A DNA stretch of 64,000 bases from a virus (Duplodnaviria; Caudoviricetes), in the IMG/VR virus record IMGVR_UViG_3300033067_001743, positions 32,001 through 96,000 of that record, one strand, 5' to 3'. The notes beneath the pieces were generated by a model. It saw only the letters and a program-made list of their open reading frames with translations, was not told where the DNA came from and did not search any database. Below, in pieces: positions 40,465 to 61,087 of this stretch. How positions within the stretch are numbered: position 1 is the stretch's first letter; each line of letters starts with the position of its first letter. The position numbers were made by a program, and so were the translations under genes.

Positions 40465-40709
40465 TATTTTTTAACCCAAATTCCTTTGTCTTTATCAAAG
40501 TCTAATGGTTTATAGTTGGCAATTTTCTTTACAGTTTTATTACCTCTTTTTTCGGATTGATTCACTTTCCAACCTCCATTAGCATTTTTACTTATCAATT
40601 CTATTTGATAGTCATCAGGATTGTGTTTGTGTACTAAAATATCACCTTCTTTAAAAGTGTCTGATAATGCCTCTTTGATTATTTGACTGTATAATTTTTT
40701 TAAATTCAT
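40464..40709 (-). CDS. hypothetical protein (possible internal head protein)
   Basis: MNLKKLYSQIIKE leader; AAGGAG SD. Confidence 0.55.
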   Translation of the reverse strand: MNLKKLYSQIIKEALSDTFKEGDILVHKHNPDDYQIELISKNANGGWKVNQSEKRGNKTVKKIANYKPLDFDKDKGIWVKK

Positions 40710-40718
40710 ATTACTCCT

Positions 40719-41024
40719 TTAAAATTGTGCCTCTCTAAATAATCCTTCAATGTCTCCACTATTAAGTGGATATGGAATTCTAAGTCTAATTCCTAATGGA
40801 GGGTGAATTGTTCCAGCATGTAATTTATTTGATTTTGCAAGGATAACCCAATACCTTGGGTCTCCATAATATTGATTTGCAAGGTTATCTAATCTATCTG
40901 ACCTTTTAGTTATAATGTAAATGTCAGATGATCTTTTTTCAAATTTTGGGTAGTATAAGGTTTCATACCTTCTCTTCCCATTATTTGCTGTTATTTTGTC
41001 TACAAATTCTTCGTATCTCTGCAT
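40719..41024 (-). CDS. LysM-like baseplate wedge protein (GpX/gp53-like)
   Basis: DRLDNLANQYYGD..YW.I...N...G.RLRIP. Confidence 0.8.
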   Translation of the reverse strand: MQRYEEFVDKITANNGKRRYETLYYPKFEKRSSDIYIITKRSDRLDNLANQYYGDPRYWVILAKSNKLHAGTIHPPLGIRLRIPYPLNSGDIEGLFREAQF

Positions 41025-41036
41025 TATTTAATCCTT

Positions 41037-41579
41037 TTATATGAAATATCTATCTTCTGCACTTGGTCTCTTTCCTACACTATTTGCAAGTATTTTAATG
41101 CTTAAACTTACATCTGTGTATAATGGTCTATTGTCTACTGCTGCCCACGGATACTCTGGTTGCCAATCATAGGTTAATGAGGTTATTATGCCATAGCCTT
41201 TGATTAAACCTCCAATTTGAAACCTTACATGTGGTGCATTAAATCCATATCCACCCTGATATATTGGATACGTCATTCTTCCTAATCTTGCAAGCAATAC
41301 TTCATGGTTATCTCTGTGTTCTTTTTCATTTAATCCAATTAATGCAAATGATACATTTAATGTTCTACTTGCACCTCCATACATAACCTTTGGGTCTGCT
41401 CTACCCATGTCAAAATATTCATTCCATTGTGGACTTGATGAATCCTGCAACGATGTTATATGTGCTTCAAATTTTAAATTAGAAGAGTCTACTGGTCCTT
41501 TTCCGGGGTCATGTCTATAGAAGTAAAAATACTCCTTACTAAATTCCGATCCGGGAGGTCCGTTTCTTGGTCTTGGCAT
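41037..41579 (-). CDS. tail tube initiator / baseplate tube-like protein
   Basis: W.....GRADP...Y....R.L.VSF; directly after the tape measure gene. Confidence 0.7.
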   Translation of the reverse strand: MPRPRNGPPGSEFSKEYFYFYRHDPGKGPVDSSNLKFEAHITSLQDSSSPQWNEYFDMGRADPKVMYGGASRTLNVSFALIGLNEKEHRDNHEVLLARLGRMTYPIYQGGYGFNAPHVRFQIGGLIKGYGIITSLTYDWQPEYPWAAVDNRPLYTDVSLSIKILANSVGKRPSAEDRYFI

Positions 41580-41593
41580 TTTTTAACTTCCTA

Positions 41594-44500
41594 TTATGAG
41601 TTATTTTCTTTCTTTATTATTGTTCCAACCTTTTGTCCATTCATTTGAAGTACAAGGTTCTTTTGTGCATCTGCTTCCATTAATTGAATCATTCTCATAA
41701 GCAACATTTCTAACTTCTTGGTTTCCATTCCCGGTCTGTTATAAATATCACTTCCACCACTATTATCACCATAATAAGAATTACTTACACTACTATTTGT
41801 TGAACCTGAGTTTCCATTAGATTCTTCATCTTTTGATTGCTTTGTTCCCGGAACAGTGTTTATTTTTACGTTTTGTGCTACTGACTCTTTTTTTGGAGTT
41901 TGTACTTCTGCTGTTTGAGTTTGCTGTGGCGCAACTTTAAATCCAATACTTGGTTCACTGTAGTTTTGAACATTACCACTTACAGTGTTTATTCTTTGAT
42001 TCACATCTTGATCAAGCGATTTAACATCAATATCATTTAACTTTTTTATACTATCGAAGTCTGCATTTCCAAGTACATTAGAAAGTTCAAGAATAGAAGC
42101 GGCAAGTTGTGATATAACTTGATTAACTGTATTTAAAGGTTCTGCCAATACAGCAAGTCTTTCCAAATCTTTAATCGCATCACCACCAAATAATTTAGCA
42201 ACTGATGTTCCTATTCCAACTGCACTAAATGCCATCATTGATGCTGATATTGCTGCTATTCCAGTTGCAACACCAAATAAAGATGTAATTGATATATTTG
42301 TTACCTCAATTAATGATAATGTTAAATCTTTTAATGGTTTAATATCTAAACCTTTCATTGAAATATTAATAGCCAAAACTGATCCTGCAAATGCAAGTAG
42401 TGATATTGAGGCTACTCCAATAGTTAAGGCTCCTGCAAGAATTAGTGGTGCAACTAATCCAAATCCTGCTGCTATAAGCCCAAATCCTGCTAATGCTGCT
42501 CCTGCTTTTTTAAGAGAATCCCATTCAATGTCATTGAACATTTTCATTCCTATTGCAAGTGGTATGATTGATGCACCTAATGCTGCAATACCTAATGATC
42601 CTGCCAACATCAATGCTAAGATAACTGGTGTACCAATAATAGCGGCTGATGCTGCAAGTCCAACCAAAGCAACACCTGCTTTAGCCAAACTTTCCCAGTC
42701 AACACTATTAAACATATTTAAAGCAAATGCAGTAGGAATTAAACTTGCACCTAATATTGCTATAGCAGCAGCACCAATCAAAATATCTCCTGATGCTTTA
42801 CCCAATACTAATGCAGCAACTACAAGACCTCCAAGTGCTACAATACCTTTACCAATACTTTCCCAACTAACATTAGCAAAGTTTTCCAATGCTTTTGAAG
42901 TTATCCATAATGCTCCTGAAACCAAAACCAATGCTGCGGCTCCTTTAATGGCATCTGTTTTAAACGATGATAGTCCACGACCTATTCCCTTTAGTAAGTT
43001 CTCAATAGACTTACCTATGGCTGCTGTGAGGCTTTTAAGGGCATCTCCAACAAACTTTACAATGTCAAGTATAACAGATTTTATTGTGTCCCATGCACCT
43101 TTTATTATTTTTGATAATTTTTCAAATATTGAACCTGTTGATGATACTGTTTTTTCTGCTGATTTTGGAAGTTCTATTTTTGATGATTTTTTAGTTACAG
43201 TTTCTTCAACTTTTTCAGTGACTGATTTTATTGGGTTTAACTTATCCTTTACTTTATCAAAACTTCCTGCCAATGATTCACCTGTTTCAGGTAATGTTGA
43301 CTTGCCAAAACTTGTTATTTTAGAAAATATTGATTTGCCATATGATCCTATTTTGCTAAATACTCCTTTTCCACTTGATTCAACATCTCCAAAACCTTTT
43401 GTTAATTTTCCTGCTATTGACCCAAAAATACCTTTTCCTGAATCTCCAACTTTTACTAATTTCTTTGATAATGTTTCAGTAACCTTTCCAAATCCACCTT
43501 CTATTCTCTTTTCAAATCTTCTTGAAAATACTTTTTCAACACTACCTTGTAATGCGTCAACTAAAAATGTTGAACCTCCCATTGCAGCCATTTCTATAAT
43601 ACCTTGCATTTGTGCGCCAGTTCCTGATAATTGCTGTGCTCCTTCCTTTTGTGCAAATACATAAGATGATAATGTCTTTGTAGCCATTACTGCCAATGCT
43701 TTTGTTCCTATCTCTGTTATTAATCCAAATGATTTTTTAATTGGACCAACTGGAATCAAATTTGCACTTTCTGCTTTAATTTCTTTAAGTTTCTTCTTGG
43801 AAATATCACTGCCTTTAGTTACACTACTTTCCATTTTATCATAACTTGCCATTGCCTCATTTGCAACTGCTTGACTTGTAGATACTCCCTCTGTTTTTAT
43901 ATCTTGTAAAAGTTTTGTTGTTGGTGATTTTGTAAACCCTTTATTTATGGAATCTGCTGCATTACTTACAGATGCTTTAATGTGTGTTACCATATCATCC
44001 ATAGAAGTCTTTATACTTTCAACCATTCCAGACATAGATGATTGAACCTTTGTCGTCATATTTACAAGTGGGTCAGTACTTTCTTTTGCTGCATCTTCTG
44101 ACTTTTTCCCAAGTGATCCAAACATTCCACCCATGCCACTTGTAAGTGAGCCAATTAATGTCCCAACCCCCGGAATAAAGGATAATATTGTTTTAAATAC
44201 ACCAACAACAGAACCTAATACAGCAGGCATTTTAAATAATAATGCCCAAGTTCCTATTGCAACACCAATTCCGTATATTGTATCTTTTACAAGATCAAAT
44301 TTATACCCAAATAATGTAACTGTTGTATTTATTGGTTTTAATGTATCTCCCCAACCATCTAAATAACCTGTTATACTGCTTAATATAGTTCCAATGGCTT
44401 TAAAAGGCCATAACATTCCTTTAATAATGGGTGATATGGCCTTTATAAGTACTCCAACTATTTTAAGTCCACCCACAATAATATCAATAAATGGAGATAC

Positions 44501-46948
44501 TGCATCTATTGCATCAGCAAACGATTCTGCTAGTGGAATTATGGCTTTTAATAGTACTCCTTTAATTTTATCCCATGCAACACTCAGTCTATCTGTCGAT
44601 TGTAATTGTTGTAGTCTATCCCTTATTTGATCTTTGTTTAATTTAGAAATATCTCCCATTCTCTCTATATTGCCTTCCAGAGCCTCTTTCATTGGACCAT
44701 CAAATGCTGCTAATTGCTCATTTAATTTAACACTTTTTCCTAATTCATCAGCACTCATTCCTAATGTTTTTGCAATTTTTGATCTTGTCAAATAATCCAT
44801 TTTATTGAATTCGGCAGTTGTTCCAATATCGTTCATTATATCTCTGGTCATTCCTTCTATATCCCCTACTAAACCTTTGTCAAAGGCATTAGAGAAATCT
44901 ATACCACCACCAGTCATAGCCTGTAATTCGTACATGTCTGTCATAAATGCTTCAAGATTAAGCATATTCTGTGCTATCTCCCCTGCCTTTTGAATAGACA
45001 TTCCCATTCTTCTAATTTGGAGAGTTGCTTTTGCTGCTTCTGCTGGCATACCTGCAAAATAAGTTGCTACTGCATCGGCTCCATCAATTAAATCTTGACT
45101 TACTATTTGTGGACTTATTCCAGCCATTTCAGACATAAATCCTAAACTCTGTTGTAGGTTTAATGCTAAATCGTCATTTGCTCCTAACTGTGTAAACGTA
45201 TTTTGTAATTTTGTTGCTTGCTCTGATCCATATCCAAATGCTTTACCTGCTTCACTGAGATTTATAGCCATCTCTTTAGAACCTTTTTCACTGAGGCTAT
45301 AGAAGTTCTTTCCATACTGAATCATTTCAGTTTGGATTTGTGTTATATCTTCCATAGTTGTGAATTGGTTTTTTTGAGAAGTCAATATGTCTAACTGAAC
45401 TCCATGTAGTTGTTTGGCTTGTAAGATGGAAATTTTCATCTCAGATGCCATTTGCTTATAAGTCTCTACTGCTGTTTTCAATGTTTGAAACAACAATGCA
45501 CCAGCAGCAACCAATAAAGTCATAGGACTTAGTGCTGTTCTTATAGATGGTCCCATCTCTTTCATGTAAACACTCATAGATTCTGTTAAATCTCCACCTT
45601 GTTTTACATAATCTGAGAATTTTTCCATCCCTTTTTTATGGGCATCTAATAACCCTAATGATACTTTTGATATTCCAAGAAAATCACTAACACCTGATGG
45701 TAATAATCCATCAATATAATCAAATCCTTCACCTATCTTCTCAACAATTCCACGAGCAGCAGTTAATTTGCTGGTATACTTGCCTACAAGTGTTAGTCTA
45801 CTTTTTTCAGTATTTATAGACTCCTGTAAAGTGCTTAAATCTCTATACCTTTCATCGAATTGTTGAAGCATTATTTTATTTGTATCATCTAATAATCCTT
45901 TGTACTTTACTATTTGATCATTTTGACTTTCGGATAATGTAACACCTTTACCTAAAAGGGATACCATATCTTTTAAGTTTGAACCTACAACATCTCCTAA
46001 TTTATTGTCAGATACTATTTTAGTTAGTTGATCTAATACGTTTTGATATTCTGTAGTACCTTGTTCTAATAAACCAGCAGCAGTTGTTATATTTGATGTA
46101 TTTACGTCAAAATTTATACCTTTTGTAAAATTCTGTGCAGCCATTTGTTTGGCCATCTTATCTTGTAAATCTGAATTTTTGCTGTAATATTCCTGTAATC
46201 CTTGTAGTCTCTTTGATTTCTCCTCATCTATACTATCAAGTGTCTTCTTAACTTCGTTGTTTAAATCGTCTGATAATGGATTAAAATGGAAATCTACTTG
46301 TATCATTGAGTCTGATGCTCTTTGTACTAATGCATCTATGTCTGACTGTATGTTATCAATCAAGATACTACCATTTTCCATACCTTTAAACATTCCATCA
46401 AACATACCAGTCAAGTCTACTTTCTTTTGAAGTAGTTTATCTGTTAATTGACTAATATCTCCTGTGCTTCCAGCAAGTGCATTTGCCTGTTTCTTACTTG
46501 CTTCTATTGCATCTGTTATTTTATTTTGACTTCTAAGTAATTTTGTAGAAAGGTCTATATTTGTTTCTATGGAATCTATTTGATCTTCAAGTAAATCTGT
46601 ATAATCTTTTGCAGAGTCTATAACATCATCACTTAGATTATCAATCTCTTTGAACCTTTTTACAATATTTTTTAAGTCTTCATCTGTAGCCTTTCTTGCT
46701 TTAGCCCACTTCTTTATAAATTCATCTGTAAGACTAAATCCGTTGTCTTTTATAGTATCTATTAGTTTATTAGCATCGTCAGCACTTTCAACAAAACCAG
46801 AATTAAGCAAAGACATAACCTTCATCAACTCTCTGTTGATGCGGCTCTGTTCTGCACTTGCTGATGACATTACTTTTACTGCCTTAAAAAGGTCTTGTAA
46901 CATCCTCTTAATTTCTTTACTGTCGTCTTGTGGTGGTTTTGTTGGCAT
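41594..46948 (-). CDS. tail tape measure protein
   Basis: 1784 aa, helical, with Ala/Gly-rich hydrophobic repeats; lies between chaperone and baseplate genes. Confidence 0.88.
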   Translation of the reverse strand: MPTKPPQDDSKEIKRMLQDLFKAVKVMSSASAEQSRINRELMKVMSLLNSGFVESADDANKLIDTIKDNGFSLTDEFIKKWAKARKATDEDLKNIVKRFKEIDNLSDDVIDSAKDYTDLLEDQIDSIETNIDLSTKLLRSQNKITDAIEASKKQANALAGSTGDISQLTDKLLQKKVDLTGMFDGMFKGMENGSILIDNIQSDIDALVQRASDSMIQVDFHFNPLSDDLNNEVKKTLDSIDEEKSKRLQGLQEYYSKNSDLQDKMAKQMAAQNFTKGINFDVNTSNITTAAGLLEQGTTEYQNVLDQLTKIVSDNKLGDVVGSNLKDMVSLLGKGVTLSESQNDQIVKYKGLLDDTNKIMLQQFDERYRDLSTLQESINTEKSRLTLVGKYTSKLTAARGIVEKIGEGFDYIDGLLPSGVSDFLGISKVSLGLLDAHKKGMEKFSDYVKQGGDLTESMSVYMKEMGPSIRTALSPMTLLVAAGALLFQTLKTAVETYKQMASEMKISILQAKQLHGVQLDILTSQKNQFTTMEDITQIQTEMIQYGKNFYSLSEKGSKEMAINLSEAGKAFGYGSEQATKLQNTFTQLGANDDLALNLQQSLGFMSEMAGISPQIVSQDLIDGADAVATYFAGMPAEAAKATLQIRRMGMSIQKAGEIAQNMLNLEAFMTDMYELQAMTGGGIDFSNAFDKGLVGDIEGMTRDIMNDIGTTAEFNKMDYLTRSKIAKTLGMSADELGKSVKLNEQLAAFDGPMKEALEGNIERMGDISKLNKDQIRDRLQQLQSTDRLSVAWDKIKGVLLKAIIPLAESFADAIDAVSPFIDIIVGGLKIVGVLIKAISPIIKGMLWPFKAIGTILSSITGYLDGWGDTLKPINTTVTLFGYKFDLVKDTIYGIGVAIGTWALLFKMPAVLGSVVGVFKTILSFIPGVGTLIGSLTSGMGGMFGSLGKKSEDAAKESTDPLVNMTTKVQSSMSGMVESIKTSMDDMVTHIKASVSNAADSINKGFTKSPTTKLLQDIKTEGVSTSQAVANEAMASYDKMESSVTKGSDISKKKLKEIKAESANLIPVGPIKKSFGLITEIGTKALAVMATKTLSSYVFAQKEGAQQLSGTGAQMQGIIEMAAMGGSTFLVDALQGSVEKVFSRRFEKRIEGGFGKVTETLSKKLVKVGDSGKGIFGSIAGKLTKGFGDVESSGKGVFSKIGSYGKSIFSKITSFGKSTLPETGESLAGSFDKVKDKLNPIKSVTEKVEETVTKKSSKIELPKSAEKTVSSTGSIFEKLSKIIKGAWDTIKSVILDIVKFVGDALKSLTAAIGKSIENLLKGIGRGLSSFKTDAIKGAAALVLVSGALWITSKALENFANVSWESIGKGIVALGGLVVAALVLGKASGDILIGAAAIAILGASLIPTAFALNMFNSVDWESLAKAGVALVGLAASAAIIGTPVILALMLAGSLGIAALGASIIPLAIGMKMFNDIEWDSLKKAGAALAGFGLIAAGFGLVAPLILAGALTIGVASISLLAFAGSVLAINISMKGLDIKPLKDLTLSLIEVTNISITSLFGVATGIAAISASMMAFSAVGIGTSVAKLFGGDAIKDLERLAVLAEPLNTVNQVISQLAASILELSNVLGNADFDSIKKLNDIDVKSLDQDVNQRINTVSGNVQNYSEPSIGFKVAPQQTQTAEVQTPKKESVAQNVKINTVPGTKQSKDEESNGNSGSTNSSVSNSYYGDNSGGSDIYNRPGMETKKLEMLLMRMIQLMEADAQKNLVLQMNGQKVGTIIKKENNS

Positions 46949-47187: not shown

Positions 47188-47207
47188 GTTTTCCTCTTGA
47201 ATATGAT

Positions 47208-47215
47208 ATAAATAT
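47208..47215 (-). promoter_or_regulatory. candidate late promoter ATATTTAT
   Basis: Intergenic, 20 nt upstream of ATG 47187; recurs before other late genes. Confidence 0.6.
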
Positions 47216-47243
47216 GATAAAATAAAAAATATTTAAACTTTAT

Positions 47244-47274
47244 TTTGTTTTTTCGTTGAAGTGTTTTACCTTTG
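47244..47274 (+). promoter_or_regulatory. Bacteroidota sigma-A type promoter
   Basis: TTTG-N19-TACCTTTG, exact consensus. Confidence 0.85.
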
Positions 47275-47300: not shown

Positions 47301-47402
47301 ATGAAGAAATTTACAGACATTGCTCAGTTTCGAAATGTTATTCGAGAGTTGAGAACACGCCATGATTACAAAGGCAAGACAGTGGTACTTTCAAAATCTT
47401 GA
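47301..47402 (+). pseudogene. 33-aa remnant resembling the N-terminus of phage Rnl2-type RNA ligases
   Basis: MKKFTDIAQFRNVIRELRTRHDYKGKTVVLSKS*; stops before any KxxG ligase motif. Confidence 0.5.
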
Positions 47403-49510: not shown

Positions 49511-49554
49511 CAAACCTTTGATAATTTTATCAATTGTTAATAATTTGCAAACGA

Positions 49555-49586
49555 TTTGGTAGTTCAAAAACCTTCCAGTATCTTTG
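49555..49586 (+). promoter_or_regulatory. Bacteroidota sigma-A type promoter
   Basis: TTTG-N20-TATCTTTG, exact consensus. Confidence 0.85.
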
Positions 49587-49608
49587 TACTATCAAAAAAG
49601 GAAACACA

Positions 49609-49791
49609 ATGAAATATTTGAAAATTTACACTAATCAACCTGAACTGATTCCTGATTACCTAAAAGAGGCTTTAACATATGTTGGGCTTTTAATGGTTGA
49701 TCTTGATCCCTTTGATGTTTTGGTTCAAATGATCCCATTTGAAAAGATGGAAGTCATTGAAAACGGAATTATAATTGAAACATTTTACTAA
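49609..49791 (+). CDS. small hypothetical protein (probable early gene)
   Basis: ATG 49609 (MKYLKIYTNQ) just after the promoter. Confidence 0.6.
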   Translation: MKYLKIYTNQPELIPDYLKEALTYVGLLMVDLDPFDVLVQMIPFEKMEVIENGIIIETFY

Positions 49792-49809
49792 ACCTTTAAA
49801 TCTTTACAC

Positions 49810-50115
49810 ATGGATTTTATCTTTGATCTTTTGGGAATTCTTTTAAAATTTTTGTTTGGAACTACATTTGGTTGGTTGTGTACTTTGATCGGTGCAACTT
49901 GGATCATTACCACTTACCGAAAAAAGACAGGAGAGGTTGATTCCAGATTTGTTGAAACCAACCAAACTCGAAACGAACTTCGAAAAAGAAACAAGGCAGC
50001 AATGGAAAACCTTGACGGTCCACCTGTTAGTTCGAAAAATGTTCGAGGTGGTTATTACAATGAGTCCGAAAATACGATTGTAAACGGACAAATAGTTAAA
50101 CCTCCTAAAAAATAA
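49810..50115 (+). CDS. membrane-anchored hypothetical protein
   Basis: N-terminal hydrophobic helix followed by a charged tail; ends before a terminator. Confidence 0.65.
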   Translation: MDFIFDLLGILLKFLFGTTFGWLCTLIGATWIITTYRKKTGEVDSRFVETNQTRNELRKRNKAAMENLDGPPVSSKNVRGGYYNESENTIVNGQIVKPPKK

Positions 50116-50594: not shown

Positions 50595-50629
50595 TTGGAA
50601 ATCTCCGTTTTTAAAAAAGTTTGTTTTAC

Positions 50630-50872
50630 TTATTTTAAGTTTTTCATGTCAAGTGATGTTCTTGATCCTTGTAATGCAAGTAATGCAGTTCCAAGCCATT
50701 TTAAAACATCAGAAACACCTTGTGGAATTGTGATAACTCCAAGTAATGTGCCTTGATCTGCAAAGTAAATAATTGTACCTAAAATCAATACAATTAAGGT
50801 TGCTACTTTTGCATTTTTGGCTTTAAACTTATCCCATAATTGAACAAGTAATGCAGTTAAAAAATCATTCAT
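50630..50872 (-). CDS. putative holin
   Basis: Likely start ATG 50872 with AGGAG SD; two TM helices, basic ends. Confidence 0.6.
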   Translation of the reverse strand: MNDFLTALLVQLWDKFKAKNAKVATLIVLILGTIIYFADQGTLLGVITIPQGVSDVLKWLGTALLALQGSRTSLDMKNLK

Positions 50873-50897
50873 TTTTATTTCTCCTATATATTTTTTG

Positions 50898-51374
50898 TTA
50901 AGAATACTCAGCGTGATCATAAGCGATTGTTAAATCTACTTGGATCACGTCATCTGTACCGTAATCCATTTCACCCCACTTCACCCCACTATAGAAGGCT
51001 CCTATGAGTTTCCAAGTTCCAACTGGTGTTGAACCATCTGGTGCAAGGATTTGAATCTGTAAATCGTGTTTATACGATGTTGCGTACTGGTCTTCTGCTC
51101 CGGGAACGGCTTGGTGTTGTTGTAAGTAATCCCAAAATTGTAAGGCTGTTATACCTTCAAATTGGTAACAACTCATGGTCAAATCGTCCCAACGTGTTTT
51201 TCCCTTAACCTTGAAATAATAGTTGATATGCTCAACTGAAACAGGGGCATTTTCAAAGCCGGGTTGTTGTGAACTACGTGCATAAAACTGTGCGCCGGGT
51301 AATTTTGATGTCAAAACCTTATATCTAAACTGTAGACTTGGTTTGTAGGCATCTGGTGTTACTACTCTTGGCAT
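50898..51374 (-). CDS. major tail tube protein (gp19-like)
   Basis: Directly after the sheath gene; FRY...KVKGKTRWDD...W.L.GAF...IAYD. Confidence 0.9.
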   Translation of the reverse strand: MPRVVTPDAYKPSLQFRYKVLTSKLPGAQFYARSSQQPGFENAPVSVEHINYYFKVKGKTRWDDLTMSCYQFEGITALQFWDYLQQHQAVPGAEDQYATSYKHDLQIQILAPDGSTPVGTWKLIGAFYSGVKWGEMDYGTDDVIQVDLTIAYDHAEYS

Positions 51375-51442
51375 TTTATATTTCCTCTATTTTTCAGTCA
51401 ACTTAATGACTTTACATATAACTATTATCTGGTTAAAATTTT

Positions 51443-53287: not shown

Positions 53288-53340
53288 TCATATTCCTCAT
53301 TATTTTAATTTGTAAGACTTGAAAATCCTACTGTTCATCT

Positions 53341-53348
53341 ATAAATAT
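53341..53348 (-). promoter_or_regulatory. candidate late promoter ATATTTAT
   Basis: Intergenic, upstream of the sheath gene. Confidence 0.6.
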
Positions 53349-53666: not shown

Positions 53667-54836
53667 TCAACGAACATATATTTTTAATGGTACATAACTT
53701 AATTGTTTACTCATTGCATCTGCAATTGCACTTTTTCTTTCTAATTGTGCTTGCATAGATGTTGAATCTAATGTTTCTTTTAATTCTGTTAATAATGCTT
53801 CTTTTTCTGTTGCAGCAGCACTTAATAAATCTGATCCATTTAATGTAACCTCACCATCTGGAATTGGCATTGATGAGTATTTTGATCTAATATATCCCAA
53901 CATTTCTTTACAGATTGCAAGGGTATATTTTCGTATCCACTGTTTACCAATTTCATTAATATATCTATATGTTATATTTTGATATGGTATATTAGATATG
54001 TCACTTATTTTACCTGAACCACCATCTCCGTTTAAATCAAAATTAGTACCTTCTGCATCAAGTGAATAATGGAACCATAAATTAAATGATGTACTTGGTA
54101 TTGGGAATATTCTAAGTCTATTTCCAGTCAATTGAAAACTATATCCACTTTTCCTTATTTCATCATTAAATTCTATTTGCTGCATTCTCAATACATCATA
54201 GTATATTGGCATGAGCATATATGTTCCGGGTAAAGTGTAATTATTCCACCCAAATTCATTTGTTACTGCATCTGCAATTGTTCCTGCGGCTGGATCATTA
54301 TATCGTACTGATGCAGGTTTTAATTTATGAAATATTTTTCTAATGGTAAATTGATCTGTAGCAAATGATCCTGTTTCAATTGTTGTATCATTTATTAAAT
54401 TGTATACTTGTTTTCCCTGAACAACAGAAACCGATCCTGTGTAGTACGTTTGTGTTCCACCAGCACCAACCTCTGACCCATATGCTTTTGCTAACCTGAA
54501 TATACCTCTTAGTGTCTGTGGGATGTATTTTCCAGACAGATTTGAACTTCCTGTTGGAAATCCTTGTAAATTAATTAAATTATCCCTTGCTTGGTAGAAA
54601 TTAACTAAGGCTCCATATTCATTTGTCGCTTCTTCAAATGCAGCATAAAAATTAATTTCATTTAATTCTACATCTGCTATTGGAAAACCTAATCGAAGAG
54701 CAGCCCACTTTGCAGTAGATTCAGCGTCATCTTGGAAATCTGGATCATTATCATAAAAACCAAAGGGAGTATATGTTAATGGAAAGAAAGAACCTGATCC
54801 GGGCCAAATGTCTATGTTTGGGTCTGTTTGAGACAT
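53667..54836 (-). CDS. neck/head-tail adaptor protein (T4 gp13-like)
   Basis: RLGFPIADVEL, WIRKYTLA..KEMLG.IRSKY..MPIP.GEVTLNG. Confidence 0.85.
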   Translation of the reverse strand: MSQTDPNIDIWPGSGSFFPLTYTPFGFYDNDPDFQDDAESTAKWAALRLGFPIADVELNEINFYAAFEEATNEYGALVNFYQARDNLINLQGFPTGSSNLSGKYIPQTLRGIFRLAKAYGSEVGAGGTQTYYTGSVSVVQGKQVYNLINDTTIETGSFATDQFTIRKIFHKLKPASVRYNDPAAGTIADAVTNEFGWNNYTLPGTYMLMPIYYDVLRMQQIEFNDEIRKSGYSFQLTGNRLRIFPIPSTSFNLWFHYSLDAEGTNFDLNGDGGSGKISDISNIPYQNITYRYINEIGKQWIRKYTLAICKEMLGYIRSKYSSMPIPDGEVTLNGSDLLSAAATEKEALLTELKETLDSTSMQAQLERKSAIADAMSKQLSYVPLKIYVR

Positions 54837-55108
54837 TAAACTTTTCCTACTACCCTATAAAGATACTGTGCTATTTTGTTAGCATCATCCCTTGAAAAAG
54901 AAATTTTTGTATTTGCCTTTTTGTCTTCTAATATAACCAAAGTACTACCAACATCAACCCATATATTTCCGAACCTTCTGGCTGTATTTGATACTGGCTT
55001 TTTTGGCTTAAAAGCATCAGGTTTCTCCATTGGAGGTTCTTCATTTAAAACAGACTCTACTAATTTCCTAACCCTCAATCGAAGTTTAGTTTCTAATTCT
55101 TTATTCAT
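54836..55108 (-). CDS. hypothetical protein (possible internal head protein)
   Basis: KLR..VRKLVESVLNE leader. Confidence 0.6.
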   Translation of the reverse strand: MNKELETKLRLRVRKLVESVLNEEPPMEKPDAFKPKKPVSNTARRFGNIWVDVGSTLVILEDKKANTKISFSRDDANKIAQYLYRVVGKV

Positions 55109-55438
55109 TTAACAGTCCTCTCCTTCTGGAAATAGTACTTTTAATTTTTGATATGCTTGTTCGTATATATTTGTCCAATTAGACAAATCATATTCGAATT
55201 CTATTTGAAACCAGTGTTGAACTTGTGCTCTATTTTCCCTTGCACCTTCATCAGGCCATACATAAATTAATGCTGTTGATTCTAATTTTTTAATCCACTT
55301 TAATTTTTGACTTCCATCTAGTAGATTTTCAAAAAATTCGTAGTCTGCACTCACACTATTTACATTCTGAACCTTTAGGTATGCTTCCTCTAAAAGGGTA
55401 TCATCTGGTAATTGAAAATTTTTTACTTTTAATGCCAT
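55109..55438 (-). CDS. tail-fibre-associated small protein
   Basis: MAL....AYLKV...NIYEQAY..LK.....EDC pattern seen next to fibre genes. Confidence 0.55.
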   Translation of the reverse strand: MALKVKNFQLPDDTLLEEAYLKVQNVNSVSADYEFFENLLDGSQKLKWIKKLESTALIYVWPDEGARENRAQVQHWFQIEFEYDLSNWTNIYEQAYQKLKVLFPEGEDC

Positions 55439-55439
55439 T

Positions 55440-55679
55440 TTATGCTTTTGATTTTTTGATTTTTGGTTTAGGTTCTACTATTTCTGGTTGAATTTCAGGT
55501 GTTTCTATTACTGTTACAACTGGTATTTCAACTGGTACTTCTTCTATAACAGGTTCTGGTTCAACTATAGGTGTTTTAACTTCTAAAGGTTTAACTGTTG
55601 CCTTAACTTTAGGTTCTACAATTTCTACTTTTTTTGATAACAGGTTCTGCCATGCAGCCCACTTACTATTTTGATTCAT
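55440..55679 (-). CDS. low-complexity P/E/V/I/K protein
   Basis: 79 aa ORF with AAGGAG SD. Confidence 0.55.
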   Translation of the reverse strand: MNQNSKWAAWQNLLSKKVEIVEPKVKATVKPLEVKTPIVEPEPVIEEVPVEIPVVTVIETPEIQPEIVEPKPKIKKSKA

Positions 55680-55696
55680 TTTGATCTCCTTTTAAT

Positions 55697-55704
55697 ATAA
55701 ATAT
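55697..55704 (-). promoter_or_regulatory. candidate late promoter ATATTTAT
   Basis: Intergenic, 17 nt upstream of ATG 55679. Confidence 0.6.
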
Positions 55705-55716
55705 CTTTTTCTATTC

Positions 55717-57378
55717 TCAAAGAATTAATGCACATTCGTAAAACAATCCTGTTGCGTTTTGTGGTACTTTACAGTGAAGAAAACTCAATGTATTAGACCC
55801 ATCTATTAATGTAGATAATGCTAATTTATTTTGTATTTGATCACCTACAGAACCAACAATTGTTGGAATTGGAGTTATAGGAGTTAACTCTCTATTTCTC
55901 ACATCCAATCTAAAAACTCCAATTGGGCCTGCCCCGGTAGTAAATGGAGCATAAAAATAAATATATCTACCTTCTTTAGATATTCCATCATATACAAATC
56001 CCATTCCTGTTATTGGAGTTATTAAATTCGCATAGTTAGGTGTAGTGGAGTAACTAGACCAGACACCAGTAGCAGCACCTGATATATCTAATACGTCCAT
56101 AGGATTTCCACCTGTAGCGGCTGCTCTGGTACTATATATCATAGATGGTTTAATAAATAGTGATGGATCAACAACCCCAAAAATTTGTTCTGAACCAATT
56201 CCAGCAGTTGATGGAGCAGATGTTCTGGCTGCCCAAGTTGAGGTATCCCATGTATTGGCCCCAACATTATAGTTGTAGACAGTTGTTGCATTTGTTAAAA
56301 ATATAATTTTATCATTATCATTCTCAATAACAAACTTACAAGTTGATGAAGGTGTTACTGTCCAGTTAGAAGCCAATGTATAAACCGGACTTGGTCCTGC
56401 TGTGTGGGAAGTTATTCTTCTCCTTTGTCCTACTGCTGTTGGAGTTGTTGCATCTTCCACAATCCTAACTTGGAAGTTTCTAAATTGATTTGCTATTAAA
56501 GTAGCATCACCATTAGAAGATTGTCCTGTTATTGTCCCAGCAGCAGTTGCAGTAGCAAGTAAACAGTTCTTTGCCCATGAACCTGAATCATATGTAGATG
56601 CTCCAACTACAAAACCTTCTCCCGGATACCTATTATAAGGTACAAATGATTCATCTAATATTACTATATCGTTAAATACAACACCTACTGTTGCTGGAAG
56701 GTTTGTAGTGGATAATGCGACAGATGTAATGCCTGTTGCTATGTCATGGTTTCTCCATTCTTTTGAAGCGCCTGTTGACAACATCCATAATTTACCAGAA
56801 AGTAATTCATATCTACTACCTGATGTTGGTGTAAAGGTTAGTGGTTCATTCAAATATACTTGAATAGTAGACCCAGATGAATTTGCTACTATTCTTCTTT
56901 CTTCTATTTTCCCAGAAGAACCCGAATTATTATCAATAATCCTTAATATATACCCAAGACCATCCCCTCGGTCTGCAAGTTGATTTATATCTACGTTTCC
57001 AGTTGATATATTATTTAACCATAACATTGAAGTGGTTGCAGAACCTGTTGGTTGTGCTGATGAACCTGATATTGATCCAGTTGGACCACCAGAGGGCTGA
57101 AAATCCCAAGCCACAGCACTTGTTACTGTTCCTCCTAATGTTTGAGAGAATTGATTGTTTTTCCATCCGTTTGTAGTGGCATTATATGATTGGTATATTG
57201 TTGTAGATGCTATAAACAAGTATTTCCTTGGATCAGCATAGTTTCTACTTCTCCTATCAAATGCAAACCCCCCGTTAACACTTCCTGCTGGTACACCATA
57301 AGTGGCAGTTGGTTGTACTGCTATACCACGCCATTGTATTTTATCTAAGTATTTTTTACTATTATTTGTTATTGCCAT
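55717..57378 (-). CDS. beta-rich (propeller-like) virion/receptor-binding protein
   Basis: 553 aa, T/S/G-rich; YN...N.W Kelch-like blades; duplicated RI.....RRI insert. Confidence 0.6.
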   Translation of the reverse strand: MAITNNSKKYLDKIQWRGIAVQPTATYGVPAGSVNGGFAFDRRSRNYADPRKYLFIASTTIYQSYNATTNGWKNNQFSQTLGGTVTSAVAWDFQPSGGPTGSISGSSAQPTGSATTSMLWLNNISTGNVDINQLADRGDGLGYILRIIDNNSGSSGKIEERRIVANSSGSTIQVYLNEPLTFTPTSGSRYELLSGKLWMLSTGASKEWRNHDIATGITSVALSTTNLPATVGVVFNDIVILDESFVPYNRYPGEGFVVGASTYDSGSWAKNCLLATATAAGTITGQSSNGDATLIANQFRNFQVRIVEDATTPTAVGQRRRITSHTAGPSPVYTLASNWTVTPSSTCKFVIENDNDKIIFLTNATTVYNYNVGANTWDTSTWAARTSAPSTAGIGSEQIFGVVDPSLFIKPSMIYSTRAAATGGNPMDVLDISGAATGVWSSYSTTPNYANLITPITGMGFVYDGISKEGRYIYFYAPFTTGAGPIGVFRLDVRNRELTPITPIPTIVGSVGDQIQNKLALSTLIDGSNTLSFLHCKVPQNATGLFYECALIL

Positions 57379-57389
57379 ACTGTATTATT

Positions 57390-57938
57390 TTAAGTGGTTA
57401 TTAATTGTAATCTGGTGTTTTGAAATGCTATATTTAATAATTGATCATTAATAGATATTGTCGTAGGTACACCAGAACTTTGGTTTAATGTGGTAACAGT
57501 TGATACAGTGGTAACAGTTGATACAGTAGTAACAGCAGAGCAAGTTCCCAATGATGTTAAAACACCAGACGTTATTTTAAGACCTCCTACCGCATCTACA
57601 AAATTTGGGTTAGCAACAATTTTAATTAACTCTTTAATTTCTATTGCCAAATCAGATATATTAGTGTCTTGGTTATCTGAGTTATCATAAAAAATCTGTA
57701 ATACATCTGAATTAGAATATGATGTTGTGTCAAATTCCAAAGTTAATACATTATTTGCAAAATTTGTATACCCATATCCACTAATATATGGATTGTATAT
57801 TATTGTTTCTCTTGTTAAATTAACGATAATCAATACTTGCCATATCCTTAAATCATATATACCAGACAGTGTAATTGTCTTAGTTGCCGCATTGAACAGG
57901 TATGAACTATTACCATTACCTACTATTTTTTTACTCAT
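57390..57938 (-). CDS. tail-fibre-associated protein
   Basis: YLFNA..KTITL...I.N.T...IIYN...LTL.FDT.....D.LQIFYD; VTTVST repeats. Confidence 0.6.
   Translation of the reverse strand: MSKKIVGNGNSSYLFNAATKTITLSGIYDLRIWQVLIIVNLTRETIIYNPYISGYGYTNFANNVLTLEFDTTSYSNSDVLQIFYDNSDNQDTNISDLAIEIKELIKIVANPNFVDAVGGLKITSGVLTSLGTCSAVTTVSTVTTVSTVTTLNQSSGVPTTISINDQLLNIAFQNTRLQLITT
57490..57535. repeat. 18-bp tandem repeat, about 2.5 copies
   Basis: GTGGTAACAGTTGATACA x2 plus a partial copy; encodes VTTVST. Confidence 0.9.
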
Positions 57939-57941
57939 GTT

Positions 57942-59738
57942 TTATCCTAATGCTATTGCAAATGCTATTGCTTGTCCTGCTGTTATACCACCACCTACAT
58001 TTGTTAACCTTGATCCATCTCCTGCAAATGCACTTGCACTTACTAAACCTGATGATGATATTGTCATTCTAACATTTTGTGGACCTCCAACTACAAAATC
58101 AATACTTGATGATGGATGTGTAGTTGGTGTTAGGTTTCCTATTATTAATTTTGATCCTGTTGTATATAAATATGCATCATTTGCTTTTCCTAAAAATTGT
58201 GGTTGATTATATCCACTTCCATTGATTCCCATATCAATGTAATTTCCAATCTCTGTCCCAGTATCATTTGTTGCAACTATATCTGATGATGCAGTTGTTG
58301 CAGTATTTTTATTTTGAATGTTTAACTGTAAATAATTATCAATATTCCCACTTGCTGTAATAGCATTAATTGAAGTTGCACCTGATAATTTAAGAACCTT
58401 TAATATTTTATCAAATAAAAAGTCTGATGAACCTGATATTGATCCTGCATCATTAAATTGTACTGATTGATTTGGCCCGGCTGGATTTGCTGATGCCACT
58501 ATTCCTGTTAATCCAGAGCCGTCTCCTACAAACGAACTTGATATTTGTCCTACTACATTAATACTTCCAGTAACATTAATACTTCCAGTAACAATTTGAT
58601 TAGACTTAAATATATTGGAACCTGTTGTGGCGTATGAAGCAGTGTTTTGTTCAATTATACCAAGTCTTAATAAAATTGATTCAGTTACTGTATTTAAACT
58701 TCCAGTTGTTTGCTCTAAATGAAATATTCTATTTGAAAATGAACTTGATAGTGTTGTAAAAGAACCTGATATATCACTTGATATTTGACTTGATGAAGAT
58801 ACTACACCACGGCCTTTTCCCTCATACTTAATGTCATATGAAGAACTTATTTGATCACTTCCTGATACAATATTTGGAATTAAGTTGTTTATCTGCTGAC
58901 TGGAACTAAGTAATCCAGTTGGCGTATTTGTTATTTGATTATAATTTACTTGTGCTGATGCACTAAACAATACACTTGGTCTATTTAATAAATTATTATA
59001 ATCTACTTGTTGACTGGAACTTATAAACCCATTAGAACTGCTTAAAATTCCAGAAGGTATTCCCGTAATCTGACTATATATTACTTGTGAAGAACCTGAA
59101 AATAATGACTTACTATCATATACAGATAGTCTATTGGCCAAAGAAGATGATACGTTTGTAAATGCTCCACTTATCTCAGTTTTTATAGCATATGAAGATG
59201 TACCATTTTCTAACCTTTGTATTTTGGTATCTGTTGAACTGGTATAAGTGTTGTAACTTGATGTAAATGTATTCTGTAAAAAAGAACTTGTAGAAAATGA
59301 TCCAGATATTTGTTGAAAATTTACCTGCTGAGAAGACGATATAAGAGACTTTGACTCAAATACAGTTATTCTCCCACTCAAAGCATTTGATGCGCTTAGA
59401 AATGATCCTGAGATGTCAGAGCCTATCTGTGCAGATGAAGATATTAAATTAGTACCCCGTTGCTCATATCTCAAATCATATGAACCTGTTAACTGTTCCG
59501 ATCCTGATACTAAATTGGAAGGTAGGTATGCTATAACTTGTTGACTTGAACTAACTATTCCAGATGGTGGAGTGTATTCACCTCCATCACTTCCTTTTGG
59601 TCCTTGTGGTCCGGGTTCATATATTTCTACTATAGAAGGAGGGTTCTCTTCTACTGCAATTACAGTTATTTCACTATTTGACTCAAAAACCTGTAATTTA
59701 ACATCGTCTCCATCTATAATATAAACTTGATCTGGCAT
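57942..59738 (-). CDS. Ser-rich tail fibre / virion protein
   Basis: Short collagen motif GPQGPKG; many (I/V)S(S/G)S.Q(I/V) repeats; C-terminal GQAIAFAIALG. Confidence 0.7.
   Translation of the reverse strand: MPDQVYIIDGDDVKLQVFESNSEITVIAVEENPPSIVEIYEPGPQGPKGSDGGEYTPPSGIVSSSQQVIAYLPSNLVSGSEQLTGSYDLRYEQRGTNLISSSAQIGSDISGSFLSASNALSGRITVFESKSLISSSQQVNFQQISGSFSTSSFLQNTFTSSYNTYTSSTDTKIQRLENGTSSYAIKTEISGAFTNVSSSLANRLSVYDSKSLFSGSSQVIYSQITGIPSGILSSSNGFISSSQQVDYNNLLNRPSVLFSASAQVNYNQITNTPTGLLSSSQQINNLIPNIVSGSDQISSSYDIKYEGKGRGVVSSSSQISSDISGSFTTLSSSFSNRIFHLEQTTGSLNTVTESILLRLGIIEQNTASYATTGSNIFKSNQIVTGSINVTGSINVVGQISSSFVGDGSGLTGIVASANPAGPNQSVQFNDAGSISGSSDFLFDKILKVLKLSGATSINAITASGNIDNYLQLNIQNKNTATTASSDIVATNDTGTEIGNYIDMGINGSGYNQPQFLGKANDAYLYTTGSKLIIGNLTPTTHPSSSIDFVVGGPQNVRMTISSSGLVSASAFAGDGSRLTNVGGGITAGQAIAFAIALG
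58555..58593. repeat. 18-bp tandem duplication
   Basis: ACATTAATACTTCCAGTA x2; encodes VTGSIN VTGSIN. Confidence 0.85.
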
Positions 59739-59742
59739 TAAA

Positions 59743-60138
59743 TCATCTCGTCACTTCTTTTAAAACCTTTACTGTTCCACTTATTAATTCTTTAACATAC
59801 TGATTTACTCCTGAACCTGAATATATTTCTATATCTATAAAAGCATTATCAAAATTAAATTGGCTTGATGAATATGCACTTATAACCATTCCAATACTAC
59901 CACTACTTCTTGGTAGAACAACAGATGCACTTGTTGGAGTCATGTAAAATCCAGTTCCATCAGGTTGAACAGAACTGGAAATATTACATAAAATTACATT
60001 AGATGTATAGGTAGGTCTTATCTGACCACGAACCTCGTAGCCAGTAAAATCAAAAGGAACTAGTGGATTGCCAGTTTTATAGACAAATCTCCTTTCAAAG
60101 GTTTTACCCTGTTTTATTACAAACGAATACCTAGACAT
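59743..60138 (-). CDS. virion adaptor protein (BppU-N/Ig-like)
   Basis: I.QG.TF....P.D.TGY..RGQIR...DIEI.SG.....LI.G.V....EVTR. Confidence 0.65.
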   Translation of the reverse strand: MSRYSFVIKQGKTFERRFVYKTGNPLVPFDFTGYEVRGQIRPTYTSNVILCNISSSVQPDGTGFYMTPTSASVVLPRSSGSIGMVISAYSSSQFNFDNAFIDIEIYSGSGVNQYVKELISGTVKVLKEVTR

Positions 60139-60160
60139 AAACTTCCCTATTTATGGGTGA

Positions 60161-60466
60161 TTAAACCCAAGCAGCCCAACTTGCTGTTACACCCGTTGAT
60201 GCTGGTACAAATCCTGATCCTGTTGCATAAAATCTCAATGTTGATCCTGATGCATTTGTATTTACAACTGTAATTGAATATTGTGGAGTTGTTGTTGATG
60301 ATCCATAATTTACTGAATTAGCAATTACAACACTTGGTGCTGATATTAATGAGTGTGTTATAACAATTGATCCAGAGTTATCCGTTGATCCAGATGTTAA
60401 ACCTTTAGCAAATACTGCTGTTTGATAATCAAATTGTTGGTAAGGTTGAAATTTTGCTCTTGGCAT
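60161..60466 (-). CDS. small virion protein (fibre-tip/H-lectin-like beta sandwich)
   Basis: ITHSL..APSVV...SWAAW; S/T/G-rich. Confidence 0.5.
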   Translation of the reverse strand: MPRAKFQPYQQFDYQTAVFAKGLTSGSTDNSGSIVITHSLISAPSVVIANSVNYGSSTTTPQYSITVVNTNASGSTLRFYATGSGFVPASTGVTASWAAWV

Positions 60467-60481
60467 TTTTAATCCTCGTTT

Positions 60482-61087
60482 TTATCTGTGTAATAATGAC
60501 ATTATTTTAGGTGCTATTGCTTTCATTGCGGCTGTTATACCATCAATAACTTCTGTTGTTTTTATCGCTGCTTTCATGCCCTGTACTAACAACTCACTAC
60601 TAAAAAATGTTGATTTAATTGTTGTAACAATTTCTTCCAGTGTGTGTCCTAATAACCCTGCCATAACACCAGTGAATATTAGTTTAGCAATAAGTTCCTT
60701 TTTATCTGGGTCTTTTGTCATCATACCGGCTACTTTTTCAAATATCCACATAACCTTTTCATGGTATTTTTCAGCAAATTCAAGTATCTTATTTGCTATT
60801 TCTGGTTCACCTAAACCAAGACCTAAATATTTTTTAAGTAATTTGTCTATACTACTCTGCAAAAAGGACACAAATTTACCAAACATCTTAACAATAAATG
60901 GGCCTGATAGTAGTAAACCAATAACTGTGGATACCCCTTCATTTACCAGTGTCTTATTTCTACAAATTCTTACAACATCTTCGCTTAATATATCCAACCC
61001 TTTTAAAAATTGTTTTTCGAAATGTATCTCTACTACAATTCTCCTTACTTTCCTTCTTAGGGCATTTTCTAATACTTTATTCTGCAT
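60482..61087 (-). CDS. hypothetical helical protein (possible internal head protein)
   Basis: LRRKVRRIVVE...LSE...VNE leader followed by amphipathic helices. Confidence 0.6.
   Translation of the reverse strand: MQNKVLENALRRKVRRIVVEIHFEKQFLKGLDILSEDVVRICRNKTLVNEGVSTVIGLLLSGPFIVKMFGKFVSFLQSSIDKLLKKYLGLGLGEPEIANKILEFAEKYHEKVMWIFEKVAGMMTKDPDKKELIAKLIFTGVMAGLLGHTLEEIVTTIKSTFFSSELLVQGMKAAIKTTEVIDGITAAMKAIAPKIMSLLHR

Follow-up and report, generated by a model that had tools for sequence, protein, structure and literature searches.

Why would a phage with Bacteroidota-type promoters place Shine-Dalgarno (SD) sites before its virion genes, when ribosomes of the Bacteroidia keep their anti-SD buried? 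The question is raised by a 64,000-nt stretch of Caudoviricetes DNA (hereafter the window), bases 32001-96000 of the IMG/VR record IMGVR_UViG_3300033067_001743 (G000; 122,495 bp, linear, CheckV completeness about 67%), and more precisely by its tail/virion module at 40709..61087 on the minus strand. An earlier note, made from the letters of the window, had listed SD sites in this module and proposed that the phage may unmask the anti-SD late in infection. We find that the genome uses two kinds of translation start, SD-less A/T-rich leaders on the one hand and SD-led virion and lysis genes on the other, and that SD-led late genes co-occur within the family with a phage gene for the ribosomal protein bS21. 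The most economical reading of this co-variation, to which we give a probability of about one half, is that phage bS21 supplies SD-reading ribosomes, acting as a permissive variant that takes the place of host bS21. Coordinates are those of the window unless preceded by G000:C1 or called genome coordinates.

SD sites exceed chance in the tail/virion module

Open reading frames (ORFs) of at least 40 aa were called greedily as longest frames, which gave 187 in G000, 181 of them on the minus strand. Each start was scored by the best duplex of its 20-nt leader with the anti-SD ACCUCCUUU, at thresholds of dG ≤ -5.5 and ≤ -4 kcal/mol. Within the interval 40709-61087, 11 of 25 genes reached the stricter and 18 of 25 the looser threshold; shuffled leaders of the same interval reached the stricter one 3.1 times on average and 8 times at most, and a count of 11 was obtained in 0 of 300 shuffles. 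As a background, 12.8% of 2589 internal ATGs reach -5.5 in the 20 nt upstream of them (binomial p 1.2e-4 for the interval). The excess extends to the whole of G000, where 49 of 187 starts were at ≤ -5.5 against a mean of 17.6 (maximum 26) over 100 shuffles. The tetramers GGAG, GAGG and AGGA concentrate 5-11 nt upstream of starts with a spacer mode of 7-8 nt, and, with a generic anti-SD used for scoring, matches to its core 4-11 nt from starts exceed chance. The phage sites are 4-6 nt long and lie in the short-helix range of energies (dG -5 to -10).

Every SD site named in the earlier note was recovered on the minus strand with a canonical spacing of 4-11 nt. From one end of the module to the other, and all on that strand, we observed AAGGAG at 40714..40719 (spacer 4) before ATG 40709 (81 aa), AAGGA at 41032..41036 (spacer 7) before ATG 41024 of a baseplate wedge-like gene, and GAGGA at 47192..47196 (spacer 4) before ATG 47187 (79 aa), directly upstream of the tape measure gene. 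Then follow GGAG at 50603..50606 (spacer 8) before ATG 50594 and AGGAG at 50881..50885 (spacer 8), which precedes the internal ATG 50872 of an 80-aa frame within the frame 50630-50920 and is probably the site that the earlier note had assigned to a putative holin. The tail tube gene (ATG 51374) and the tail sheath gene (ATG 53287) are both led by GAGGA, at 51383..51387 (spacer 8) and 53294..53298 (spacer 6), respectively. Further on, AAGGAG was found at 55120..55125 (extended AGGAGAGG, spacer 11) before ATG 55108 and at 55686..55691 (spacer 6) before ATG 55679, and GAGGA at 60473..60477 (spacer 6) before ATG 60466. Just beyond the module, GGAGG at 61749..61753 (minus, spacer 5) precedes an alternative TTG start (61743) of a PhoH-like gene; the longest frame of this gene begins at GTG 61755 without an SD, and the TTG, four codons in, was chosen after the SD was seen.

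Two promoter classes

Promoter classes were derived without reference to SD sites, from 7-mers enriched in the non-coding DNA, which makes up 3.7% of G000 (G+C 32-35%). The top 7-mers, TATTTAT and ATATTTA (11-12 sites versus 23-38 in coding DNA, p 1e-9), are parts of a phage motif ATATTTAT[AG] (ATATTTATR), and the next were TTGTTAA/TGTTAAT and TCTTTGC/ATCTTTG. ATATTTATR occurs in G000 in 18 coding-strand copies versus 4 on the opposite strand, with 10 copies outside called ORFs plus one 19 nt ahead of a start. The genes downstream of it mostly encode virion components: copies lie before TerL, after the portal, before the major capsid protein (MCP), at the sheath, before the tape measure, and at the genes of a 719-aa protein and of PhoH. 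Judged by this gene content, the class would be late. In the window, promoter-like copies on the minus strand were found as ATATTTATG at 61786..61794, 30 nt before the PhoH-like gene, and as ATATTTATA at 55696..55704 (16 nt before ATG 55679), 53340..53348 (52 nt before the sheath gene) and 47207..47215 (19 nt before ATG 47187). Phage T4 late promoters (TATAAATA, read with gp55) are similar in placing one A/T-rich box, with no evident -35 element, ahead of the virion genes of a T4-like phage, but the box of G000 reads ATATTTATR. No gp55-like protein was detected by PHROGs (187 proteins, 1e-5) or Pfam (62 of 187, 1e-6) in this record, which is about 67% complete.

The second class consists of seven intergenic sites of the form TTGTTAAT..cTTGaca-N19-TAtCTTTGc. 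The Bacteroidota sigma-A promoter consensus is -33 TTG / -7 TAnnTTTG with a spacing of about 19 nt. Seven of the 15 coding-strand matches to TTG-N-TAnnTTTG fall in the 3.7% of non-coding DNA, all seven ending in TTTG; since the bare pattern has no strand bias genome-wide (15 versus 14), only the intergenic set carries weight. Two of these host-type promoters, both on the minus strand and followed by SD-less leaders, are TTGACA-N-TACATTTG at 37138..37168, 6 nt before ATG 37131, and TTGGTA-N-TACCTTTG at 1150..1180, 40 nt before ATG 1109. Directly upstream of the -33 box, host-type promoters carry TTGTTAAT or TGTTAAT (for instance at 37172-37191); with 7 intergenic versus 15-16 coding copies (p about 1e-6), this sequence may act as an UP-like element or bind a regulator.

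The earlier note had placed host-type promoters and A/T-rich leaders before six genes. The strict form TTG-N17-21-TAnnTTTG was found for 1109 and 37131 only; 32416 and 47363 have variant boxes, and none was found for 21867 and 49810. Its description of the leaders stood, with dG values of +0.9 (1109), +2.0 (21867), +2.2 (32416), -3.0 (37131) and +2.3 kcal/mol (49810), apart from position 47301, which is not a start codon, the frame beginning at 47363.

SD strength differs between the promoter classes

Each minus-strand gene was assigned to the closest upstream promoter and hence to a phage-promoter or a host-type unit. A dG ≤ -5.5 was reached by 30 of 78 genes (38%) in phage-promoter units versus 19 of 101 (19%) in host-type units (Fisher p=0.004), and a dG ≤ -4 by 41/78 versus 24/101 (p=9e-5; Mann-Whitney p 8e-4). 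The first genes of the units differed likewise, with a median dG of -5.9 behind the phage motif (n=11) and of -1.5 behind host-type promoters (n=7; p=0.007). The individual values were -7.4, -3.3, -7.3, -8.2, +1.0, -8.9, -5.6, -5.9, -8.0, -4.8 and -5.9 behind the phage motif, the +1.0 belonging to the PhoH-like gene scored at its longest-frame start, and -2.7, +1.5, -1.5, -3.0, +0.9, -0.4 and -6.3 behind the host-type promoters. When genes were grouped by PHROG function instead, 13 of 15 structural/lysis genes were at ≤ -4 versus 5 of 23 genes of DNA/nucleotide metabolism (p=0.003). The class difference was stable under three start rules, including the first ATG and the best start within the first 20 codons. 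SD-less leaders behind host-type promoters suit native Bacteroidia ribosomes, because there the anti-SD is buried by bS21, bS18 and bS6.

SD strength thus differs by class as a bias and not as a clean switch. The exceptions listed in the earlier note do carry SDs: AAGGAG at 27407..27412 (minus) before the ribonucleotide reductase gene nrdJ (ATG 27395), AAGGAG at 24407..24412 (minus) before a nuclease gene (ATG 24399), and SDs on the TTG-start genes 13305, 13017, 22522 and 11022. The clearest non-virion exceptions to the class rule are two homing endonuclease genes with good SDs in the replication region (16597 and 22522, minus). The first of them, with AAGGA at 16607-16611, has its own phage promoter motif (ATATTTATG, 16616..16624, minus, 18 nt upstream).

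A phage bS21 gene in the head module

The earlier note had seen no bS21 gene in the window and suggested looking in the remaining genome, where a search found one. The gene (G000:C1:109388-109624, equivalent to window 77388-77624 and so 13,388 bases past its end; minus strand, 78 aa) scores 34 bits (cut-off 27) with Pfam PF01165 at G000:C1:109415-109573 (E 3.2e-9, and 2.4e-8 in a second scan). It lies between the prohead protease and MCP genes, whose strand it shares, within the TerL-portal-protease-MCP block (genome coordinates: TerL 115403-116953, portal 113556-115415, protease 110603-111247, bS21 109388-109624, MCP 105966-107633). The last, cut ORF of the window (63326..64000, minus, PHROG 2971-like) continues past the end toward this head module. 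The bS21 gene belongs to the unit beginning at the phage motif 113552 (genome coordinate), and it has an A-rich leader without an SD (dG +2.0). Among 50 family loci, the bS21 leader was weaker than -4 in 36, one clade having AAGGAA. In the same block, the 293 nt directly upstream of the prohead protease (G000:C1:111248-111540) contain no called ORF, look coding-like and may hold a missed or frameshifted gene.

Compared alone with solved bS21 chains, the G000 protein gave weak matches (E 0.014-0.18), and a profile of 18 family bS21 proteins matched 36 distinct solved sequences (best E 2.4e-13), covering residues 9-61 of 7jil_z. Tyr68 of the G000 protein aligns with Tyr54 of the Flavobacterium johnsoniae chain 7jil_z and with the Tyr of 9i5v_9, a signature of Bacteroidia. 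The equivalent position in 52 family bS21 proteins is Y in 15, F in 5, R in 26, K in 5 and V in 1. Loss of this masking Tyr was considered as the cause of SD use and rejected, the median SD fraction being 0.44 for the 20 aromatic and 0.38 for the 32 non-aromatic proteins. All 18 aligned phage proteins have about 15 extra N-terminal residues relative to the solved chains, and this conserved basic extension, as far as can be judged from the sequence, is a candidate for a functional difference from host bS21.

No bS18 or bS6 gene was found in the G000 record. A tblastn search of the phage collection with the G000 bS21 gave no match at E≤0.01, and the bS21 of a relative matched 18 records. A homologue search with bS21 returned 11 close proteins only, mostly unnamed, with no cellular relatives from which to infer a host, and the bS21 clusters of a protein atlas were all viral (scores 0.86).

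bS21 and SD-led late genes co-vary among relatives

Three IMG/VR scans with family MCPs, of which the best 80 matches each were kept among at least 600 family loci, gave 200 loci with 114 distinct MCPs. bS21 was scored by Pfam on whole records, where it was found in 36/49 and 15/30, and by a family hidden Markov model (HMM) within loci. Among the best 80 loci, 50 had bS21, encoded in every case on the strand of the MCP gene and 1.2-3.9 kb upstream of it. A negative call required at least 4.5 kb upstream of the MCP, and the 31 of 114 loci that could not be scored for bS21 were excluded, which left 83. With SD-rich loci defined as those in which at least 20% of ORFs are at dG ≤ -5.5, 49 loci had bS21 and were SD-rich, 2 had bS21 and were SD-poor, 32 lacked bS21 and were SD-poor, and none lacked bS21 and was SD-rich. 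Both SD-poor loci with bS21 nevertheless have an SD on the MCP. The MCP leader was at ≤ -4 in 49 of 51 loci with bS21 versus 2 of 32 without. Within the family, bS21 and SD-led late genes thus co-occur.

These counts are not independent because the loci are kin. On the MCP tree (FastTree), clades with and without bS21 are interleaved, and we obtained 4 independent pairs on supported branches and 5 on all branches (3 and 5 with the best 80 loci alone). SD use follows bS21 in 3.7 of 4 pairs and never goes in the opposite direction.

Whole genomes showed the same trend. The fraction of starts with an SD, compared with the internal-ATG background, was.262/.128 in G000,.166/.116 in G003,.160/.102 in G004 and.202/.086 in Microcystis phage Mel-JY01, all with bS21; it was.057/.200 in Flavobacterium phage vB_FspM_immuto (hereafter immuto) and.021/.140 in G011, both without bS21 and depleted in SDs. 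G011 is a member of the bS21-less clade sister to that of G000 (MCP 61% identical) and has 7 intergenic TTG-N-TAtCTTTGc promoters, the same number and kind as G000. SD-bearing genes cluster within structural blocks in G003, G004 and Mel-JY01.

ATATTTAT was a top intergenic motif in all five family genomes tested, of the kinds with and without bS21, with 11, 28, 34, 26 and 35 sites having a gene within 150 nt. The genes behind it have stronger SDs than the others in G000 (p 0.01), G003 (p 0.04) and G004 (p 0.025), and 0 of 22 have an SD in immuto; the promoter is therefore common to both kinds of phages, and the SD is not.

Two cultured relatives represent these two kinds. Immuto (Immutovirus, MW353176.1) resembles G000 in its MCP (52.6% identical), in head gene order and in ATATTTAT as top intergenic motif, but its SD sites are depleted, and neither Pfam (E≤1) nor the family HMM (E≤10) detected a bS21 in it. 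Mel-JY01 (PP395634.1; MCP 55.8%) has, like G000, an SD-rich head region and an annotated RpsU between protease and MCP, and differs in its recorded cyanobacterial host and in early genes with weak AGGA sites. A temporal split that is clean across the family is ruled out by the SD energies of these early genes. Mel-JY01 also has 13 intergenic promoters of the form A-tract-TTGCAT-N-CGTAnnTTTGTA, which are of Bacteroidota type despite the recorded host, and the culture may contain a Bacteroidota bacterium that is its true host.

We also examined the 40 kb around bS21 in two huge phages. The 735-kb phage LR756501.1 showed a modest SD excess there (.20 vs.12). Its bS21 gene (19980-20180) has a very strong SD (AAAGGAGGA, dG -11.8), which resembles that of Flavobacteriales host rpsU, unlike the SD-less leader of the G000 bS21.

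Gene content, host and other genes of the record

A PHROGs scan of all 187 G000 proteins placed replication and nucleotide metabolism at 11-32 kb of the window (DNA polymerase, helicase, UvsX-like recombinase, SSB, class II-like ribonucleotide reductase, dUTPase) and identified in the tail/virion module at 40709..61087 (minus) the sheath, three tube-like proteins, tape measure, hub, wedge and adaptor together with many unknowns, the head module (MCP, prohead protease, portal, TerL) lying past the window end. By MCP, the closest cultured relatives are Mel-JY01 and immuto, with the identities given above, followed by T4-like cyanophages and coliphages at about 30%. A megablast search of the phage collection with 8.3 kb of the window gave no match. 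G000 is a T4-like myophage related to immuto, and the window covers its replication and tail genes. Its host is probably a Bacteroidota bacterium, to judge by the 7 intergenic TTG-N19-TAnnTTTG promoters, by the nearest cultured relative with a named Bacteroidota host, which is a Flavobacterium phage, and by the SD-poor early leaders. A host-like epimerase gene, searched in bacterial genomes, gave 3 weak matches (34-39% identity; TM6, an uncultured metagenome-assembled genome and one of Proteobacteria) that were uninformative for the host.

At 49534-50115, the plus strand carries the sole adjacent plus-strand ORF pair of the window (85 and 101 aa), in a 640-nt gap between minus-strand genes and beside a terminator-like GC hairpin with a T run; an overlapping minus-strand frame of 82 aa with AGGAGG may be spurious. 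An adenylosuccinate-synthetase-like gene (window 61980-63104, minus; PF00709, 7e-44; PHROG 1211, 2-amino-type adenylosuccinate synthetase) closes an operon with a metallophosphoesterase and a kinase-like gene behind a host-type promoter. A dATP/dGTP pyrophosphohydrolase-like gene lies elsewhere in the record (loci listed with the synthetase: G000:C1:96236-97595 and 20497-21306), and together these genes hint at a PurZ-style modified-adenine DNA pathway.

Outside the window, the 719-aa protein (G000:C1:97656-99815, window 65656-67815) combines fibronectin-III repeats with a reprolysin-like M12 zinc metalloprotease domain; its gene is the only one behind its phage motif and has one of the strongest SDs (AAGGAG, dG -8.2). 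At G000:C1:101124-103733, an R2K ATP-grasp gene is flanked by genes for an RNA ligase and a polynucleotide kinase, which form a tRNA-repair-like pair; the three lie behind a host-type promoter, and all their leaders are SD-less. The sole tRNA found in the record, tRNA-Arg (anticodon CCT; G000:C1:2277-2349, minus), is located between two phage motifs near lysis genes.

Discussion

Phage bS21 is not new in itself. It was already published by Mizuno 2019, it is the ribosomal protein commonest in phage genomes (McNutt 2023, PMC9976891), and Chen 2022 (ISME Commun 2:31, PMC9723584) reported it among head genes, with late expression and a proposed selection of late phage mRNAs by way of its entry into host ribosomes. 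The freshwater Bacteroidetes myophages of that study resemble G000 in having bS21 among TerL, portal, protease and MCP, an inferred Bacteroidetes host and the equivalent of Tyr54. The G000 family differs from the five clades of that study in the strand of bS21; in G000 and in 50 of 50 family loci with bS21, the gene is on the strand of the MCP, and we therefore did not file G000 in these clades. The words "RBS," "motif," "promoter" and "leader" are absent from the main text of Chen 2022 (PMC9723584), which therefore gives no cis signal. Our full-text literature search returned no title or abstract start tying phage bS21 to SD sites on phage genes. The known part is thus phage bS21 and its proposed role in late translation, and the new one is the SD link, which we did not find in print.

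In F. johnsoniae, the anti-SD is held by bS21, bS18 and bS6, and mutations of the platform pocket free it and enhance SD-dependent initiation (PMC13000457). Tyr54 is described as stacking on A1534 and turning the anti-SD toward the pocket (Jha et al.; Arpin et al., PMC13000457), and ribosomes without bS21 initiate better on SD-led mRNA (PMC9976891, PMC13000457). The autoregulation of rpsU in this species (McNutt 2023, PMC9976891; Arpin 2026, PMC13000457; Naeem 2026, PMC13000453) offers a close parallel, since there an SD-led mRNA is translated or not, in a cell otherwise blind to SDs, according to the bS21 status of the ribosome. It concerns a single host gene whose 13-bp SD helix, with a required energy below -13 kcal/mol, competes with the pocket and expels bS21 (PMC13000457). 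G000 differs in having dozens of genes with short SDs and an extra, phage bS21, all known from sequence. Pairing energy is balanced against the pocket, and the short phage SDs should count only where the 16S tail of the ribosome has been freed beforehand.

If phage bS21 supplies SD-reading ribosomes, the following course can be proposed. Unmodified ribosomes would make phage bS21 through its SD-less leader; the protein would then replace host bS21 in 30S subunits and either leave the 16S 3' tail free or stabilise the short SD-anti-SD helix, upon which SD-led virion mRNAs would gain over SD-less ones. We infer here when the phage promoter acts, that phage bS21 enters ribosomes and what it does to the anti-SD. 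A broader version, which we offer tentatively, is that bS21 acts as a reprogramming subunit that turns SD-blind Bacteroidia ribosomes into SD-reading ones and opens a private channel for virion mRNAs, the SD-less leader serving as bootstrap, and that gain or loss of bS21 drives the gain or loss of SDs on late genes.

Several observations weigh against phage bS21 having this role. On the side of the sites, the 16S tail used for scoring is a generic one and may differ from the host's own. A split of SD strength by genome region, at a single coordinate, was weak (21/63 versus 28/118, Fisher p=0.22), and because of this result promoter units and PHROG classes were used instead; even then, the 19% of host-unit genes with a good SD include nrdJ, the nuclease gene and the two homing endonuclease genes. 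In Mel-JY01, weak CAGGAA sites lead the first genes of the 13 host-type promoters, and the mean dG of these genes (-4.02, n=13) does not differ significantly from that behind the phage motif (-4.17, n=14), with 3/13 versus 8/14 first genes at ≤ -5.5. On the side of the co-variation, bS21 changes state only 5 times on the MCP tree, and the sign test gives p=0.125, no lower value being possible with so few pairs. The link is also not general to all bS21 phages, since the 636-kb phage LR756504 shows no SD excess in the 40 kb around bS21 (.04 vs.05) and LR756501 a modest one. As to the protein, G000 bS21 keeps Tyr68, the equivalent of the masking Tyr54, and the unmasking of the anti-SD proposed in the earlier note is an inference only. 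The residue at this position fails to explain the pattern, because SD use is alike in proteins with and without an aromatic residue there. Chen et al. read the conservation of this Tyr as a sign that the anti-SD stays blocked by phage bS21 (PMC9723584). What the earlier note had named as damaging to its idea was not what we found: SD strength is not equal among gene classes, and the host does not look like an SD user, as far as its Bacteroidota-type signals tell.

The co-variation could also be imposed by the hosts, if relatives with bS21 infected SD-reading bacteria and those without infected SD-blind ones such as Flavobacterium, both traits tracking the host and SD use not being enabled by bS21. 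We regard this as unlikely. In its favor, the co-variation rests on about 5 independent changes, Mel-JY01 with its bS21 is recorded on a cyanobacterial host and also has weak AGGA sites on early genes, some bS21 phages infect bacteria other than Bacteroidota (e.g., Pelagibacter phage Mosig), and 32 of 52 family bS21 proteins have R, K or V at the Tyr54 position, as does the chain of the SD-using Staphylococcus aureus. It is hard to reconcile with the intergenic TTG-N-TAnnTTTG promoters of G000 (7) and Mel-JY01 (13), which the bS21-less and SD-depleted G011 has alike (7), with the lack of an SD in 6 of the 7 G000 genes directly behind host-type promoters, with the Bacteroidia-signature Tyr of G000 bS21, or with the interleaving of both kinds of clades on the MCP tree. 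A still less probable scenario has the SD sites read by a small natural pool of bS21-free ribosomes, which may grow after host shut-off, while the role of phage bS21 lies elsewhere, for instance in maintaining complete ribosomes or in damping the feedback on host rpsU. Such ribosomes do favor SD-led mRNA in F. johnsoniae (PMC9976891, PMC13000457), G000 bS21 is host-like at Tyr68, and Chen et al. argue that phage bS21 acts like that of the host (PMC9723584). However, one would not expect a phage that profits from bS21-free ribosomes to contribute bS21 of its own, the absence of SD-led late genes in all 32 scorable relatives without bS21 would be left unexplained, and the phage SDs (dG -5 to -10) fall short of the -13 kcal/mol below which rpsU must lie to act against the pocket.

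It is very improbable that the purine-rich motifs serve RNA processing, RNA stability or the architecture of promoter and leader instead of initiation. Several of them do lie 15-20 nt past ATATTTATR and so near the 5' end of the transcript, but they match the anti-SD core and keep SD spacing even inside operons remote from promoters, and immuto has the same promoter motif before 22 genes without any such site. Chance, base composition or an artefact of start calling hardly deserves any credence: gene calls were simple longest frames, leaders are A-rich and some starts are uncertain (61755 versus 61743), yet no shuffle out of 300 reached the observed count, the motifs peak 5-11 nt before starts, the result holds under the three start rules, and equally A/T-rich relatives are depleted in SDs.

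The published proposal steers ribosomes to late phage mRNAs and names no signal on the mRNA; such a signal would be supplied by SD-led late genes whose presence follows that of bS21 in hosts that ignore SDs. The idea is directly testable in the existing reporter and cryo-EM systems of F. johnsoniae, and the two cultured relatives, one with and one without bS21, make bench tests feasible. The co-occurrence gives phage bS21 a testable job without proving it and, if the reading is true, these phages would be a clear case of a virus altering the specificity of ribosomes by swapping a single protein.

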